Virus record (IMG/VR): IMGVR_UViG_3300029740_000238
DNA length: 64,000 bases
Direction: 5' to 3' (one strand)
DNA from: a virus
Lineage: Duplodnaviria > Heunggongvirae > Uroviricota > Caudoviricetes
Made by a program: the position numbers and the translations under genes
In this document: positions 23,462 to 56,783 of the stretch, piece after piece
Numbering within the stretch: position 1 is the stretch's first letter
Layout of the letters: every line of letters starts with the position of its first letter
The notes under the pieces: generated by a model
What the model was told of the DNA's origin: nothing
The model's database searches: none
What the model saw: only the letters and a program-made list of their open reading frames with translations

Positions 23462-24016
23462 GTGAATAGCAAGTATCGAGAGCAAACCTGCTGCTTTGTC
23501 GGGCACAAGGATATCCCACCGGGAGAAAAGCTCAAAATATTAGCCAGAGTAGAGCATCGACTGATTCCTCTCATTCAGCAGGGAGTCATATACTTTGGTA
23601 TCGGTGGCTCTTTAGGGTTCGATGCCCTCATGGCAGATATGCTGGTTTCCTTGAAAGCTGCACATCCTCGTATTCGTATCATTGAGGTTTTACCATTTGA
23701 GGGATACCGTTCCAGGTGGAGTTTAGAACAACAGCGGCACGCAGAGAAGATAGACAAACAGGTGGATAAGATTGTCTATGCGGCGAAAGAGCCAAGCAGG
23801 GGAGTATATCTTTTAAGAGACCGGCATTTAGTGGATTGTTCTGCCTATTGCATCTCCTATTGTACTAGAAATACTGGAGGCACAGCATATACGGTAAAAT
23901 ACGCTCTGGAACATGGCGTAACGGTGTATAACGCTTCCAGTTTCGATGTGAGCGCCTTGCTTCAGGCTCAGCCGCTTGGGAAGAACGAACAGGTAGTGTC
24001 TTCGCACAAAATATGA
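23462..24016 (+). CDS. SLOG-superfamily protein (DUF1273/YpsA-like)
   Basis: CCFVGHKDIP near the N-terminus matches the C-x-TGHR signature. GTG start with RBS GAAGGTGAAG. Confidence 0.55.
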   Translation: MNSKYREQTCCFVGHKDIPPGEKLKILARVEHRLIPLIQQGVIYFGIGGSLGFDALMADMLVSLKAAHPRIRIIEVLPFEGYRSRWSLEQQRHAEKIDKQVDKIVYAAKEPSRGVYLLRDRHLVDCSAYCISYCTRNTGGTAYTVKYALEHGVTVYNASSFDVSALLQAQPLGKNEQVVSSHKI

Positions 24017-24296
24017 GGGAGATTTCCTGGCGTTTGGAAAAAGCACCCCTATGACTTTGAGCTTTGCCGCACAAAAAGCGAGCCTCCGCTCTTTGGCGGG
24101 GGCTCTTCTTGTATTCTCAAAAACGTTGAATTTAATTTCACTGAATTCCGATTCAGCATTATTTGGCGTGGCTCAGCTTGGCCCGGTAGCACGATACCAT
24201 GGCGGCCGAACACAACGATTCTCCAGAACGGAATTCTCGACATTCGGTGCGAATCGTATATAATCTAAATAATAAAACAGTATAGGAATATAGCTA

Positions 24297-24338
24297 AGCC
24301 GCCAAGCGAGTGAAATCGTTTGGTGGCTTTTCTTTTTG
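24297..24338 (+). terminator. Rho-independent terminator
   Basis: AGCCGCCAA ... TTGGTGGCT stem plus TTTTCTTTTTG. Confidence 0.55.
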
Positions 24339-24381
24339 CTGCGGAAAAGTAGACATTGTACTTGTCATGAGCTTGTTGCAT

Positions 24382-24445
24382 ACTTGCTACGAACTTGCTA
24401 AAAACTTGCTAAGCACTTGCGACGCTTCACCTCGAAGCAAGTTCA
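24382..24445. repeat. Four direct repeats of ACTTGC(T/G)A at exact 11-bp phasing, plus an inverted GCAAGT copy
   Basis: Copies at 24382, 24393, 24404 and 24415, seen directly. Confidence 0.7.
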
Positions 24446-24903
24446 TTTTTTTGCGCGAAAGAATATCGGATAAGTGACGCTTCCTACTCGTATGACCGAA
24501 AGAAAACATGCAAAGACTCTACCATTCTGGTAGGGCTTTTTTGCTGCCCAAAAAGTTGGAAAAATGTCGCAAGCGAGCCGCTGAAACCTCAGAATTTTGT
24601 CGCAGCCTTTCCGAATATGAGATGTATCTCACAAAAGCGAAATGCGCTGCTTCGTATCTGTGGTGAGACAATCGGAACAGGCGAATAGCAAAATCTCAGC
24701 TGCCGCAAATGCTGTCAAGTTCAAATCACAACTCCCAAAAGTTTCGTTTGGGAAAGCCTGCATTAAAAGTTTCGTTCTGGAAAATGCAGAGGGGAAAGGA
24801 AAATGTCGAAGCATATATGCACTGATTTTCTTCTTGCTATTTGTGCAATCCGCTCAAATTGGCGATAAATATTCCCAAAATAAATAAGTCAAAGTGCTTT
24901 TGG

Positions 24904-24911
24904 TGTATAAT
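24904..24911 (+). promoter_or_regulatory. Extended -10 promoter (TGTATAAT) for the lipoprotein gene
   Basis: TGTATAAT lies 32 nt upstream of the start. A duplicate copy precedes the paralog. Confidence 0.5.
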
Positions 24912-24942
24912 GGCTCTGACAAACAGAAAAAAGGAGAACACT

Positions 24943-26034
24943 ATGAAAAAGGTTGTATCATTAGCACTTTCGACTTTGCTCGTCCTCTCGTTGGCTGCCT
25001 GTGGCAAGGCAGACAGTTCTGCTGCAGCCTCAAGTAAATCCAAGTCAAGTGCTTCGTCGTCAAGTGCTTCGTCAAATAGCACTTCCAATAGCACGCAAGA
25101 TTACAGCCCTGACGGGATTAAAGTAGGAGAGACATATACTACAGAAGACGGCAAAACATATGAAAGGGTGTGGAACGGCACAGGCAGCGATTTACCCACG
25201 CCGTCCCCCGAACCCAAAATTACATACGATAATGATTTCCAGGCACAAACACTTGTTGATAATGAAGAATGCACCATTATCTTGCAGAGCGTAGGCTACG
25301 ATGATGATTACGGCTATTATTGGAAGCTTTACTTCAAGAATAAGACATCAGATAAAAAACTCGGTTACTCGTTTGGCGACTGCACATTGAATGGCGTGGG
25401 TGCGAGCCTTTGGCTTACGAGTGTTGAACCTGGTCAAGAGGAAACGGAGATTCATCATTGGGAAAGTTCCGGGCTTAAAATTTATAACATCAATCCGCAG
25501 GATATCAATACGGTAAGTTTTTATCTCAATGTTTATAACGAATTAGATGATGCTGTCCCACGACATGACCTTGTTGATGACGATTTCGTGGTTTATCCAA
25601 AAGGGGAAGAAAACGCAACCGAGCCAAAGCATGAAACTCAACCCACAGACCTCGTACTGGCCGACAATGACGCTTGCACTCTGATGATTTGTGGATTTGA
25701 CCCCGATGGCCTGGACGGTTACACGGCTAAAGCTTACATCGAAAACAAAACAGATAAAGAAATCATGCTTGCCTTTAGAAGTGGAGGTTCCATAAATGGC
25801 TTTGAGTGCTTCCCTGAAACAGATACAATGGGAATTGATGCGCACACTAATGCCTATGTAGACATCTACTATCGCGATTATTTGGATACTTATGAGGCCA
25901 ACGGTAAAGACCCCACCTCTATCACCGAAATGGTGATGCCAATCGTTATAAACAATTTCAATACTCGGGACATCTATGTAGATGAGACTTTCACTATCAA
26001 CCCTCAGACAAATTCCGTGACAACATCGGAATAA
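24943..26034 (+). CDS. Lipoprotein with an internally duplicated domain (paralog A)
   Basis: MKKVVSLALSTLLVLSLAACG lipobox. Two copies of a DNxxCTxxLQxVGYDDxYGYYW ... NKTD domain. Confidence 0.7.
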   Translation: MKKVVSLALSTLLVLSLAACGKADSSAAASSKSKSSASSSSASSNSTSNSTQDYSPDGIKVGETYTTEDGKTYERVWNGTGSDLPTPSPEPKITYDNDFQAQTLVDNEECTIILQSVGYDDDYGYYWKLYFKNKTSDKKLGYSFGDCTLNGVGASLWLTSVEPGQEETEIHHWESSGLKIYNINPQDINTVSFYLNVYNELDDAVPRHDLVDDDFVVYPKGEENATEPKHETQPTDLVLADNDACTLMICGFDPDGLDGYTAKAYIENKTDKEIMLAFRSGGSINGFECFPETDTMGIDAHTNAYVDIYYRDYLDTYEANGKDPTSITEMVMPIVINNFNTRDIYVDETFTINPQTNSVTTSE

Positions 26035-26150
26035 TTTGACGCCCTCCTGCGATTAAAATTGTTGGCTTTCCCAGACTTCATTTGCAATTTTGCAAATAAA
26101 GTTTCATTCTGGAAAACACGGTGGAAAAGTAAAATGCCGAAGCGCTTTTG

Positions 26151-26158
26151 ATGTATAA
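26151..26158 (+). promoter_or_regulatory. Extended -10 promoter (TGTATAAT), duplicate
   Basis: Same element as at 24904. Confidence 0.5.
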
Positions 26159-26189
26159 TAGCCTTATACAAAGAAAAAAGGAGAAAATC

Positions 26190-55621: not shown

Positions 55622-55642
55622 ACACAACAGTGCAAAAGCAAA

Positions 55643-55680
55643 CCCTGCTCGCAGCAAAATGCGGGTAGGACTTTTTTGTT
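55643..55680 (+). terminator. Rho-independent terminator
   Basis: CCCTGCTCGCA ... TGCGGGTAGG stem plus TTTTTTG. Confidence 0.55.
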
Positions 55681-55735
55681 TGCGTAGCTGCATCCTTTTG
55701 CCCGCAGAAACCGTAGGTGCCAGGATGCGTAGCTG
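55681..55735. repeat. Second cluster of GCGTAGC / ACCGTAGGT motifs
   Basis: TGCGTAGCTGC ... AACCGTAGGTGC ... TGCGTAGCTGCC; the same motifs as at 11878-12073. Confidence 0.65.
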
Positions 55736-55755
55736 CCGACATGGCTTGACCTGAT

Positions 55756-55793
55756 GTGCGAGGCTCGTACAATCAGATTTGTACGACAGATAT
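55756..55793 (+). promoter_or_regulatory. Promoter-like motif GTGCGAGGCTCGTACAAT with an inverted partner ATTTGTACGACAGATA
   Basis: Family member of the palindromic subtype. Confidence 0.45.
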
Positions 55794-55861
55794 CAAACAC
55801 AAAATAGGGTTTACATTGAGCTGCTCAGTGGCCTTATGGCTGTTGGGTAGCTTTTTCTTTT

Positions 55862-55879
55862 GTGCGAGTTGCGTACAAT
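55862..55879 (+). promoter_or_regulatory. Recurrent promoter-like motif GTGCGAGTTGCGTACAAT
   Basis: Lies 25 nt upstream of the lipoprotein gene start. Confidence 0.45.
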
Positions 55880-55903
55880 AAAAACCAAGCGGAGGAAACG
55901 ACG

Positions 55904-56311
55904 ATGAAAAAATTTATTGGAATTGTTTTAGTGTTGTGCTGCCTGGCTCTACCTTTGGCTGGCTGTGAGGACGCAATCAGCACTGTGACAAGTACCACAA
56001 TGTCTGAACTCGAAGATATTCCGAGTCAGATATTGTCTACACCAGAAAGTGCTGAGACAGTACCGGAATACAATTACATTCATTTTCGCTACGACAATAT
56101 TTGGACCGTATCCGCTCTCGTAAGCTACGAAATCGTGGACAACGGGCAAAACATCAAGTTTGAAATCAACGATAGCCGTTATCGTGATAAAGTCTTTTAT
56201 ACCAGCATGTCCAATGTCGAGCTCGTATACCGCGACGATAGCGTTGATTATCGCACGGACTATGCTGTTTATCCGGGTAACACCTCGAAGTTTGACAGGA
56301 AGGGAAAATGA
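55904..56311 (+). CDS. Small lipoprotein
   Basis: MKKFIGIVLVLCCLALPLAGC lipobox. RBS GCGGAGGAA. Confidence 0.65.
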   Translation: MKKFIGIVLVLCCLALPLAGCEDAISTVTSTTMSELEDIPSQILSTPESAETVPEYNYIHFRYDNIWTVSALVSYEIVDNGQNIKFEINDSRYRDKVFYTSMSNVELVYRDDSVDYRTDYAVYPGNTSKFDRKGK

Positions 56312-56312
56312 C

Positions 56313-56783
56313 ATGAGTATTAAATTTATCGACGGCAATATTTTTTCACGACTTTCTGCGAGTAAGCCAACTTACATTTGCCAGCAAGTAAATTGCAAAG
56401 GCGTGATGGGAGCTGGACTTGCCATGCAAATTTGCATCCAATGGCCGGTGGTATATCAGCGCTATCTGGAGTTTTGCTATGGAAACAACGGCAACAAGCT
56501 CGGTACTTACCAGGAGGTTCTGGTAGAACCGAAGCTGTATGTCGTGAATCTGTTCGGGCAAAATGGTTATGGCCGTGGTGAAAGGCAGACGAATTATGCT
56601 GCATTGGCGACTGCGCTGTTCTCGTTTTTTAGAGACTGCGCTCAAAAGAATCAGGACGTAACTATCCGGCTGCCATATGGCTTAGGCTGTGGCCTTGCCG
56701 GAGGCGATTGGAACACGGTTCTGGACATCATCAGCGATGCGGCTAAAGCCTGGAATGTAAATGTCGAGATTTGGAAGCTGTAA
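56313..56783 (+). CDS. Macro-domain protein (ADP-ribose binding/processing)
   Basis: ICQQVNCKGVMGAGLA matches the macro-domain glycine-rich signature. 156 aa. RBS GGAAGGGAAA. Confidence 0.75.
   Translation: MSIKFIDGNIFSRLSASKPTYICQQVNCKGVMGAGLAMQICIQWPVVYQRYLEFCYGNNGNKLGTYQEVLVEPKLYVVNLFGQNGYGRGERQTNYAALATALFSFFRDCAQKNQDVTIRLPYGLGCGLAGGDWNTVLDIISDAAKAWNVNVEIWKL

Follow-up and report, generated by a model that had tools for sequence, protein, structure and literature searches.

Here, we identify a macrodomain protein and a NADAR protein on a conjugative element of human-gut Clostridia as putative orphan, antitoxin-like ADP-ribosyl glycohydrolases, and we tentatively favor a role for the pair in counter-defense of the element. 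The protection conferred would most likely be directed against ADP-ribosylating host defenses rather than against the element's own ART. Orphan-eraser counter-defense is known from phages; its use by a conjugative element would extend that strategy. The carrier spans 200–350 kb, is frequent in human-gut metagenomes and encodes a type IV coupling protein, a VirB4/TraC-like ATPase and an M23 hydrolase, while neither a relaxase nor an oriT turned up in the 64,000-nucleotide stretch analyzed here (the window) or within 8 kb upstream.

A preliminary description had located macro, NADAR and SLOG genes scattered across the element. The three ORFs lie exactly where it placed them (Table 1), independent gene calls on many metagenome contigs give the same starts (156, 150 and 184 aa, respectively), and all three domain calls hold. 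"Scattered" is accurate because the genes are 22 kb (SLOG to NADAR) and 10 kb (NADAR to macro) apart, in three different transcription units within mosaic modules. On an element of this size, the presence of all three domains is statistically unsurprising. In profile searches, SLOG (YpsA, 52.2 bits, cut-off 27.7, E 9.5e-14) and NADAR (PF08719, 91.4 bits, cut-off 35.1, E 9e-26) exceed the curated Pfam thresholds. The macro protein scores below the Pfam Macro cut-off (14.8 bits against 22) but is recognized by PDB, PHROG, NCBIfam and PADLOC matches.

Table 1. Positions in the window of the genes and promoter motif copies discussed in the text
Feature	Position	Strand	Description
SLOG superfamily protein	23462–24016	+	184 aa; YpsA clade; Pfam PF06908
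ART-HD operon	27373–30325	-	two genes
ART-HD protein	28928–30325	-	465 aa; first gene of the operon
ART-HD partner	27373–28917	-	514 aa; no detectable domain
AcrVA2-like protein	40836–41723	+	295 aa; precomputed Pfam PF26125 mark; operon behind motif copy at 40186
Shared promoter motif copy	43321–43342	+	before helicase-p184-NADAR operon; PWM score 30.6
ResIII/SNF2-type helicase	43680–45875	+	731 aa; Pfam ResIII and Helicase_C; upstream in NADAR operon
p184	45880–46434	+	184 aa; function unassigned; between helicase and NADAR
NADAR protein	46457–46909	+	150 aa; stand-alone; YbiA (Glu) subfamily; clade-specific Cys cluster C119, C121, C124
Shared promoter motif copy	55862–55883	+	GTGCGAGTTGCGTACAATAAAA; before lipoprotein-macro operon; PWM score 30.6
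Lipoprotein-like ORF	55904–56311	+	135 aa from ATG 55904; signal/lipobox-like N-terminus MKKFIGIVLVLCCLALPLAGC
Macrodomain protein	56313–56783	+	156 aa; stand-alone; ALC1/TARG1-like class, SCO6735/BT1257 subtype

Several strong lines of evidence support the macrodomain assignment. A phmmer search of the PDB matched SCO6735 (5e3b, E 3.8e-13), BT1257 (2fg1, E 2.8e-10), Poa1p (E 2e-7) and the DarG macrodomains 5m31/5m3i, with 6lft also among the matches. DarG is the best match in both NCBIfam (E 4e-12) and PADLOC (E 1e-13), PHROG 335 (annotated "phosphatase") is matched at E 1e-36, and homologs of ~46% identity carry PF01661. The preliminary description had allowed for an inactive variant of the catalytic residues; instead, the protein has the SCO6735-type set Asn27/Gln83/Gly127, the counterparts of N27, Q85 and G128 that are essential in SCO6735 (PMC9411070). 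Across homologs down to 43% identity, conservation of N27 is at least 90%, and no variation occurs at Q83, G125 or G127. The DNA-contacting Lys34 of SCO6735 is Ala34 here, with K29, R88 and R91 nearby. Judged by its sequence, the protein looks catalytically competent. The contig collection lists 132 blocks with an identical protein. The lipoprotein-like ORF ends 1 nt before the macro ATG, and the two genes form a 1.5-kb cassette: the related locus L015 lacks exactly window positions 55262–56781 and, by this clean indel, has NADAR without macro. Conversely, L001–L005 and L008 have macro without NADAR. Macro and NADAR are gained and lost independently of each other among the compared loci and behave as accessory cassettes within a mosaic region.

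The NADAR protein likewise looks competent from its residues. It passes TIGR02464 (77.7, cut-off 73.7), matches E. coli YbiA (2b3w, E 3e-13) and the P. nicotianae NADAR (8bau, E 2e-9), and keeps all eight ADP-ribose-contacting residues of the latter (E33, K40, R62, W70, R74, E106, D113 and W116). Gaps of 4 and 22 nt separate the genes of the helicase-p184-NADAR operon, a unit kept in L009–L016; in related elements, the helicase-p184 pair is missing beside NADAR homologs of 52–54% identity. The SLOG protein is not demonstrably tied to the ADP-ribose theme of the preliminary description. It is a YpsA relative (PDB 2nx2, E 9e-4; the GxD/E motif is present as G-F-D at YpsA G53/E55) that also gives weak DprA-like matches, and it sits in a separate conserved block of Y-family polymerase, 90-aa, 129-aa (minus strand) and SLOG genes (L017–L020 and L023–L028). 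The link between SLOG and ADP-ribose is a published prediction only (PMC6459960, PMC9503650), and a part for this SLOG protein in an ADP-ribose function is conjectural.

A conserved promoter motif, GTGCGAAT...TACAAT, precedes the macro and NADAR operons and ~15 other plus-strand units. A PWM scan found 17–19 copies in the window, all on the plus strand, against 0.4 expected in shuffled sequence, and none upstream of the SLOG gene or at the ART-HD operon. An independent sigma-70 scan detected TTGTCA-16-TACAAT at 43311–43338, ahead of the NADAR operon. Motif-bearing operons include that of the AcrVA2-like gene, whose product gave no PDB sequence match, and those of Mor-type regulators. The motif recurs in equivalent positions upstream of diverged macro and NADAR genes of related elements: it precedes 220aa-NADAR operons in L038 and L039, and in the diverged L029, it lies ~1.8 kb upstream of macro, at the head of the plus-strand ORF run that ends in macro.

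What the two enzymes would act on, when they would be expressed and that recipient defenses would be their targets, we infer as follows. The macro and NADAR genes would be expressed from a promoter family with a common conserved spacer element, and other establishment or anti-defense-like genes of the element may be driven by the same class. The SCO6735/DarG-like macro protein would strip thymine in single-stranded DNA of the ADP-ribose added by DarT2-type enzymes, and the YbiA-type NADAR would do the same for guanine, the base modified by DarT1, ScARP and pierisin-type enzymes. In conjugation, DNA arrives in the recipient single-stranded, the substrate form attacked by DarT enzymes, so that removal of adducts would allow the element to replicate and be transcribed. 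The anti-defense branch of the preliminary description is plausible in the light of precedents: SCO6735 de-ADP-ribosylates thymidine in single-stranded DNA and rescues cells from DarT (PMC9411070), every NADAR subtype tested so far hydrolyzes guanine-ADP-ribose (PMC11125620), and orphan phage NADARs (AdfN) counter DarTG1 (PMC11825919). E. coli YbiA is active on guanine-ADP-ribose in vitro, yet in vivo it does not relieve DarT1 toxicity (PMC11125620), and YbiA-type enzymes can therefore have other physiological substrates. In the literature searched, we found no report of DarTG restricting conjugation.

The other branch of that description, immunity to the element's own ART, found no support. 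The ART-HD candidate on which it drew is real, combining an HD domain with an ART fold in which the R-S-ExE motifs are invariant. It has, however, a partner gene of its own, 10 nt downstream in each of the 11 loci that show this side (514 aa, or 509 aa in L022; L017 and L025 are one scaffold, making 11 rather than 12 ART-HD loci). The macro and NADAR genes are 26 kb and 16 kb away, on the opposite strand and in other transcription units, vary independently in their presence, and share a promoter motif absent at the ART-HD operon. Moreover, an invariant ExE motif is typical of arginine-specific ARTs, the product of which is removed by ARH/DraG-type hydrolases; to our knowledge, macro and NADAR enzymes do not cleave the arginine-ADP-ribose linkage. 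We therefore consider it highly improbable that macro, NADAR or both are antitoxins for ART-HD in the manner of the DarT-DarG, DarT1-NADAR and YarT-YbiA pairs, even though toxin-antitoxin pairs of an ART and a hydrolase exist for both hydrolase types (PMC9411070, PMC11125620). Such known pairs are adjacent, whereas macro and NADAR have no ART beside them, either in the window or at related loci. The closest approach is in L003, where the ART-HD pair lies ~8 kb (at most) upstream of macro, but the NADAR segment lying between them in the window is missing from that locus.

Three further explanations bear on the macro and NADAR enzymes, and in part on SLOG. Counter-defense could be aimed at signaling, with the hydrolases, and possibly SLOG, destroying small ADP-ribose-derived immune signals or toxins such as the cyclic ADPR isomers of TIR/Thoeris-type systems or ADPR-1''-phosphate, as Iyer et al. 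2022 propose for the co-occurring Macro, NADAR and SLOG proteins in large DNA viruses (PMC9503650). The similarity of macro to yeast Poa1p, an ADP-ribose-1''-phosphate phosphatase, the "phosphatase" annotation of PHROG 335 and the predicted binding of such ligands by YpsA-clade SLOG domains (PMC9503650) are consistent with this idea; nevertheless, we judge it rather unlikely, as the nearest characterized macro relatives work on DNA, SCO6735 does not cleave several other ADP-ribose linkages (PMC9411070, PMC11833690), the literature searched gave no NADAR or YpsA-clade SLOG activity on cyclic ADPR, and the SLOG gene is outside the shared promoter class. The enzymes might instead be cargo that, rather than aiding invasion by the element, shields the element-bearing host cell from phage ADP-ribosylation or competitors' secreted ART toxins, or that repairs DNA or RNA damage. 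Proposed shields against exogenous ART toxins include SCO6735 and stand-alone bacterial NADARs (PMC11833690, PMC11125620), and in E. coli, ybiA shares a LexA-controlled operon with dinG, a helicase gene (PMC11125620), an arrangement that parallels the helicase-p184-NADAR unit, but this helicase link is lost at the NADAR homologs of 52–54% identity. TIR, GmrSD, type I R-M and type I-C CRISPR-Cas systems crowd the equivalent region of related elements, so the location of the two genes in this defense hotspot would suit protection of the host just as well. (One apparent anti-defense neighbor was removed: an MBL gene faintly flagged as Apyc1-like has a ComEC-type nuclease domain.) NADAR weakly matches the candidate defense components PDC-M42C (PADLOC, E 4e-14) and DS32_2 (NCBIfam), but the latter at 56 bits against a cut-off of 240, and neither helicase nor p184 matches other PDC-M42 components. 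With the AcrVA2-like gene also under the shared promoter class, we think host protection has a low probability. Even less probable is that three unrelated accessory genes met by chance on a very large mosaic element, SLOG acting in single-stranded DNA or nucleotide handling beside the Y-family polymerase and NADAR in YbiA-like metabolite damage control. This would fit the separate transcription units, the independent variation, the DprA-like matches of SLOG, the commonness of each domain on large mobile genomes (PMC9503650) and the fact that TIGR02464, a riboflavin-intermediate N-glycosidase, is the sole curated equivalog-level model passed by NADAR. However, no riboflavin genes are nearby, the specific motif common to the macro and NADAR operons recurs before diverged homologs, and the two enzyme families are complementary, erasing both known DNA-base ADP-ribose adducts.

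Among known systems, the macro protein resembles SCO6735 of Streptomyces coelicolor, its best structure match, and BT1257, which are stand-alone ALC1/TARG1-like macrodomain hydrolases of ~155–180 aa without adjacent DarT. It shares with them Gln for the TARG1/DarG lysine, Ala for TARG1 Asp125, the retained Asn27 and a GCGLAGG loop. It differs from SCO6735, a conserved chromosomal gene induced by DNA damage, in being an accessory cassette, in the Lys34 replacement, which falls inside a DarG/TARG1-like "VMGAGLA" loop, and in a mobile loop that is two residues shorter and has Arg for Lys. DarG of DarTG2 is homologous and the top NCBIfam and PADLOC match; however, the element protein reaches 46 bits against an equivalog cut-off of 250, lacks the C-terminal DarT-binding domain (156 versus ~340 aa) and an adjacent darT, and has Gln for the catalytic Lys80.

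The NADAR protein belongs with E. coli YbiA, has no N-terminal extension and likewise has a helicase neighbor, but unlike YarT-YbiA (PMC11125620), it has no adjacent YarT-like ART, resides on a mobile element rather than in a chromosomal SOS operon and has a helicase linkage that related elements do not keep. Large DNA viruses commonly carry each of Macro, NADAR and SLOG, and the domains co-occur there above chance (Iyer, Burroughs, Anantharaman, Aravind 2022, PMC9503650). The same stand-alone domains occur here on one large mobile genome, which is conjugative rather than viral and keeps the three genes apart and unfused; the viral trio is read as degrading small ADP-ribose signals. ADP-ribosyl hydrolases are not in the main text on the leading-region anti-defense islands of conjugative plasmids (Samuel et al. 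2024, PMC11541004), but the likeness to those islands extends to one-strand orientation, umu-like polymerase genes, methyltransferases, an anti-CRISPR-like gene and orphan-antitoxin logic. AdfN (Johannesman et al. 2025, PMC11825919) is carried by phages rather than by a conjugative element, and the element NADAR has Glu106, as in the YbiA subtype, instead of the His of the T4 gp30.3 subtype (Pfam Phage_30_3, 18 bits, cut-off 36), plus an extra Cys cluster. Nevertheless, both are stand-alone NADARs on mobile elements that keep the catalytic core and have no cognate toxin, and the concept of an orphan antitoxin as counter-defense established by AdfN is the one that we predict from sequence for the element NADAR.

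In this conjugative element, nothing that we found ties the macro-domain protein (macro) and the NADAR protein to each other except a shared promoter motif, and the same motif separates both from the SLOG protein and from ART-HD, a candidate ADP-ribosyltransferase (ART) with an HD domain. Our best explanation, which we offer tentatively, is that macro and NADAR would serve as orphan, antitoxin-like counter-defense against DNA ADP-ribosylation. The preliminary description had united the three proteins under an ADP-ribose theme while calling them scattered across the element; scattered they are, with SLOG, NADAR and macro lying in three separate units.

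All three ORFs are real, in that their starts match independent calls (156, 150 and 184 aa for macro, NADAR and SLOG, respectively), and the domain assigned to each in the preliminary description was recovered. Macro scores 14.8 bits with Pfam Macro PF01661, below the gathering threshold of 22; despite this sub-threshold score, phmmer matches it to solved macrodomains, i.e., the stand-alone hydrolases SCO6735 (PDB 5e3b; E 3.8e-13) and BT1257 (2fg1; E 2.8e-10), Poa1p (E 2e-7), and DarG, the DarTG2 antitoxin (5m31/5m3i). Homologs at ~46% identity do carry PF01661, and macro also matches PHROG 335 (E 1e-36) and the DarG profiles of NCBIfam and PADLOC. In SCO6735, mutagenesis found Asn27 and Gln85 to be essential and Gly128 to be important; Gln85 stands where TARG1/DarG has the catalytic lysine, and Lys34 and Lys89 contact DNA (PMC9411070). 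In the phmmer alignment, N27, Q83 and G127 of macro, the last within G125-C126-G127, align with Asn27, Gln85 and Gly128. Across 13 homologs (to 43% identity), Q83, G125, C126, G127, G130 and G131 are invariant and N27 is kept in at least 90%. Macro has Ala at the Lys34 position, in a DarG/TARG1-like VMGAGLA loop with K29 close by, and its mobile loop carries Arg88 and Arg91. The Lys84/Asp125 dyad of TARG1 is not present, Q83 and A129 being the macro residues by the SCO6735 alignment and published equivalences (PMC9411070), and this absence is common to macro and SCO6735. Judged from sequence, macro belongs to the SCO6735 subtype of ALC1/TARG1-like macrodomains. It was rejected as a DarG: it reaches 46 bits against an equivalog cut-off of 250, its 156 aa leave out the second, DarT-binding domain, and there is no adjacent darT. 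A chromosomal Bacillus homolog with 46% identity is likewise stand-alone, with no ART nearby.

NADAR scores 91.4 bits with PF08719 (gathering threshold 35.1) and also passes TIGR02464. The ADP-ribose complex of the P. nicotianae NADAR defines E43, K50, R79, W89, R93, E125, D130 and W133 (PMC11543638), which correspond, in the same order, to E33, K40, R62, W70, R74, E106, D113 and W116 here. Among 13 homologs, E33 and K40 are invariant and W70, E106, D113 and W116 are kept in at least 90%. Thus, macro and NADAR both keep their catalytic residues, and neither shows an inactive catalytic variant in its sequence. E106 aligns with E125 of 8bau, and the 150-aa protein begins at the core fold; because it has Glu at the defining position and no N-terminal extension, NADAR is placed by these sequence features in the YbiA subfamily. 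Two other assignments were rejected. A DarT1-associated (BC4488) antitoxin needs Asp, a basic N-terminal extension and an adjacent darT1, whereas this protein has Glu and no extension; for a T4-type AdfN/gp30.3, Phage_30_3 PF08010 gives 18.2 bits against a cut-off of 36, and Glu stands where His is defining. In the mobile-element NADAR clade, the catalytic D-x-x-W is followed by an inserted, conserved Cys cluster, WGxCxC..xC (C119, C121, C124), which YbiA-like members lack; it may form a small metal-binding knuckle.

The SLOG protein reaches 52.2 bits with PF06908 against a cut-off of 27.7, and its G-F-D aligns with G53/E55 of YpsA in the GxD/E nucleotide-binding motif. It is not an ortholog of the B. 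subtilis cell-division regulator YpsA (NF010181, 43.8 bits against a cut-off of 165; no ypsA-gpsB pair). Its neighbors are a Y-family polymerase and small ORFs of no known function, and it ends a conserved block of polymerase, 90-aa ORF, 129-aa ORF (minus strand) and SLOG. The connection of SLOG proteins to ADP-ribose is a prediction from the literature only (PMC6459960, PMC9503650), and YoqJ of SPbeta, a prophage member of the YpsA family, shows that such genes are common as cargo.

The ART-HD candidate of the preliminary description was substantiated. The protein has an ART fold with the Arg, Ser-x-Ser/Thr and [Q/E]xE motifs of the R-S-E clade. In 18 homologs (40-94% identity), Y203-R204-G205-E206, S218-W219 and E260-x-E262 are invariant, as are H317, H355-D356, H368, H394 and D425-D430 of the HD domain. 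Foldseek with the whole AlphaFold model (pLDDT 91) returns HD/phosphodiesterase folds only, and the ART domain was for that reason modeled on its own. From the invariant residues and the fold results, we therefore conclude that ART-HD is an R-S-E-type ART and an HD hydrolase domain in one protein. Ten nucleotides downstream lies a 514-aa gene (509 aa in L022), which is present in 11 of 11 fetched loci showing that side; searches of Pfam, PHROGs, NCBIfam, PADLOC and PDB gave no match for its product.

The shared motif is 22 nt long (consensus GTGCGAATTGCATACAATAAAA) and was found at cassette borders. Scanned with a weight matrix, the plus strand of the window gives 17-19 copies and the minus strand only two weak matches, against an expectation of 0.4 in shuffled sequence. 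Every copy stands before a plus-strand gene or operon. A TTGnnn (-35) lies ~6 nt upstream of the motif, the -10 is TAcAAT, and the 16-17-nt spacer has an invariant GTGCGA(A/T) and contains GTGCGAAT; together, motif and TTGnnn read as a sigma-A-type promoter, and four copies were also recovered independently by a generic promoter scan. The motif is kept in the diverged related elements L029, L036, L038 and L039. In L038 and L039 it lies ~100 nt before the NADAR operons; in L029, one copy stands just before the UvrD-like gene and another, ~1.8 kb upstream of macro, heads a run of plus-strand ORFs ending in macro. By contrast, SLOG and the ART-HD operon have no copy ahead of them (best scores 0.1 and 2.8, respectively), and the motif is absent from the Bacillus chromosomal macro locus. 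The sites resemble operators or promoters of a regulon specific to the element, and the Mor-family regulators would be candidates for the protein binding the spacer. The leader of the helicase-p184-NADAR operon (p184, a 184-aa gene) carries hairpins and may be subject to attenuation or antitermination control.

Positions of the genes, motif copies (22 nt each) and other features in the window
Feature	Position	Strand	Remarks
SLOG gene	23462-24016	+	
Tandem paralogous lipoprotein-like genes	24841-27212	+	397 and 354 aa from first possible starts
Partner gene of ART-HD	27373-28917	-	
ART-HD gene	28928-30325	-	465 aa
IS200-type Y1 transposase gene, then ORF	33578-35720	-	133 aa; 578 aa, without Pfam match
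AcrVA2-like gene	40836-41723	+	295 aa
Leader of helicase-p184-NADAR operon	43311-43663	+	
Strong, terminator-like hairpin	43372-43398		at most 35 nt past the operon promoter
Second hairpin	43639-43663		just before the helicase start
NADAR gene	46457-46909	+	
Cys cluster of NADAR	46805-46830		residues 117-124
Macro gene	56313-56783	+	
MBL-fold protein gene	62682-63863	+	393 aa
Motif before flotillin	30793	+	
Motif before Mor-type regulator	38976	+	
Motif before operon holding AcrVA2-like gene	40186	+	
Motif before helicase-p184-NADAR operon	43321	+	
Motif before methyltransferase	49593	+	
Motif before lipoprotein-macro operon	55862	+	
Motif before UvrD-like gene	56852	+	
Further motif copies	17622, 24247, 30626, 32975, 36388, 54829, 55235, 55756, 63844, 63892	+	

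Comparison with related loci, in views reaching 10 kb either side of a gene, shows that macro and NADAR are present or absent independently of each other. L015 has NADAR and is missing exactly window 55262-56781, the lipoprotein-macro cassette. In L001, L002, L004, L005 and L008, macro follows wholly different upstream genes (DUF4379, EcoRI-type methylase, GmrSD and, except in L001, TIR), and in L003 the ART-HD pair, flotillin, Mor and AcrVA2-like gene are joined directly to the macro cassette, with no helicase-NADAR-methylase segment. Macro starts 1 nt after the lipoprotein-like ORF and is followed by the UvrD-like helicase gene, a pair that recurs at 56%/52% identity. In other related elements, type I-C CRISPR-Cas is inserted between the two; therefore, their adjacency is backbone synteny around an insertion hotspot, and tight coupling of macro to the UvrD-like gene was rejected. 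NADAR, flanked by the helicase gene, p184 and a 144-150-aa ORF, is the third gene of its operon (gaps of 4 and 22 nt), and this unit is kept in eight loci. NADAR homologs with 52-54% identity in related elements lie behind a 220-aa gene, without the helicase; the AcrVA2-like gene (in L038) and a conserved 202/203-aa ORF stand a few kb upstream of them. A conserved helicase-NADAR unit was accordingly rejected, the helicase being lost beside both of these fetched homologs. Directly downstream of SLOG, related contigs differ, having type I R-M with a HipA-like gene or Eco57I/ResIII genes. Overall, the backbone has insertion hotspots at fixed positions (24.0-24.3 kb and 53-56.9 kb in the window), and the defense systems in them differ from copy to copy (L001-L008, L024, L026, L027, L035-L037). 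One hotspot directly follows SLOG; the others precede the macro cassette or separate macro from the UvrD-like gene. Among the inserts are TIR with GmrSD/HNH and EcoRI-type methylase, type I R-M with the HipA-like gene, Eco57I/ResIII, and type I-C CRISPR-Cas.

The 64-kb window (G+C 46.9%) is part of a conjugative element. It starts with a type IV coupling protein and a VirB4/TraC-like ATPase, and directly upstream on matching contigs are a 1930-aa protein, an M23 peptidase and the full coupling protein. Further genes encode the Y-family polymerase, DUF4379 zinc-finger proteins, flotillin, an IS200-type transposase, a PLD-family nuclease, Mor-type regulators, a ResIII helicase, a type I-like methyltransferase with S subunit, the UvrD-like helicase and an MBL protein. 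To count among the leading-region anti-defense islands (cf. Samuel et al. 2024, PMC11541004), the region would have to adjoin oriT on the side transferred first, with its genes on the transferred strand; it shows one-strand orientation and the shared promoter motif, and neither relaxase nor oriT was identified in the window or 8 kb upstream. Megablast with 24 kb of the window found no close DNA relatives in phage or plasmid collections. Many contigs from human-gut metagenomes, the longest 271 kb, encode proteins identical to those of the window, and contigs of up to 355 kb encode related versions; 132 blocks of the contig collection list an identical macro, and the element is thus very common in human-gut metagenomes. 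A one-genome-per-species scan for macro relatives places the host only roughly, having given just two distant loci, one in a Clostridiales MAG and one in a Ruminococcus MAG.

Several other genes deserve mention. The IS200-type transposase-ORF pair is also found in L017, and in the L006 copy of the element an IS605 OrfB/TnpB-type insertion occupies another site. The tandem lipoprotein-like genes, between the SLOG hotspot and the ART-HD operon, measure 363 and 340 aa in the gene calls of related contigs; they have Ser/Ala-rich linkers and no known domain. The AcrVA2-like protein is so named from precomputed Pfam PF26125 marks only, and no sequence match was found in PDB; its gene is kept in all related loci covering its position. 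The MBL-fold protein, stand-alone here, matches the beta-lactamase-like nuclease domain of ComEC (E 1.6e-34), and a faint precomputed match suggesting an Apyc1-like (Anti-Pycsar) anti-defense neighbor was dropped in favor of these ComEC matches.

What, then, would macro and NADAR do for the element? The preliminary description had allowed for immunity to the element's own ART, and this was not supported. The hydrolases lie 16-26 kb from ART-HD, on opposite strands, and are not co-inherited with it; ART-HD has its own invariable partner in the 514-aa gene; and both inheritance and promoters are independent. Moreover, the ExE motif goes with arginine-specific transferases, and the enzymes that cleave the product of these are of the ARH/DraG type. 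For these reasons, immunity to the element's own ART is unlikely, and an ART-hydrolase toxin-antitoxin module of the DarTG or YarT-YbiA type was rejected on the same lack of adjacency, separate pairing and independent presence.

Counter-defense, by contrast, would fit both the relatives of the two proteins and their carrier. Conjugative DNA enters recipients single-stranded, and DarT enzymes modify the single-stranded form; from this established knowledge of conjugation and DarT, we infer that entry would expose the element to DarT. Thymine adducts made by DarT2 are erased by SCO6735, DarG and TARG1, and SCO6735 protects cells from DarT (PMC9411070). The guanine adducts of DarT1/ScARP are a substrate of every NADAR subtype tested, and thymine adducts of none (PMC11125620, PMC11825919, PMC11833690); orphan NADARs (AdfN) let phages defeat DarTG1 (PMC11825919). 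The closest characterized relatives of macro and NADAR thus together erase the two known base-linked DNA ADP-ribose adducts. Counter-defense is rated best because of these relatives and because both genes are orphans on a conjugative element transferred as single-stranded DNA. Its main rivals are that the proteins destroy small signals derived from ADP-ribose, as has been suggested for this trio of domains in large viruses (PMC9503650), and a host-protective or repair role, in line with surroundings rich in defense systems and with the parallel to ybiA-dinG (PMC11125620).

A more specific version of counter-defense, which we regard as rather unlikely in its entirety, is that a conjugative mega-element, widespread in human-gut Clostridia, runs a dedicated establishment regulon, marked by the GTGCGAAT-spacer promoter, with a thymine-specific macro and a guanine-specific NADAR eraser. 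If so, DarT-family DNA ADP-ribosylation would be a barrier to conjugation, and not just to phage, and plasmid-like elements would carry paired orphan antitoxins to break it. Should a conjugative element of abundant gut bacteria carry both erasers behind one class of promoter, conjugation would have DNA ADP-ribosylation to overcome besides restriction and CRISPR, and ADP-ribosyl hydrolases would join the catalogue of plasmid anti-defense genes. Such hydrolases are not mentioned in the main text of the leading-region study (PMC11541004), and literature searches found no published report of orphan ADP-ribose erasers on conjugative elements. Orphan NADARs have so far been shown to disarm DarTG1 in phages only, and in the literature found, the stand-alone thymine-ADP-ribose erasers shown to neutralize DarT (SCO6735, TARG1) are chromosomal genes only. 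Orphan erasers on mobile elements have already been published for phages (PMC11825919), and co-occurrence of the domains for DNA viruses (PMC9503650); new here are the conjugative carrier for orphan erasers and the presence of both eraser types together.
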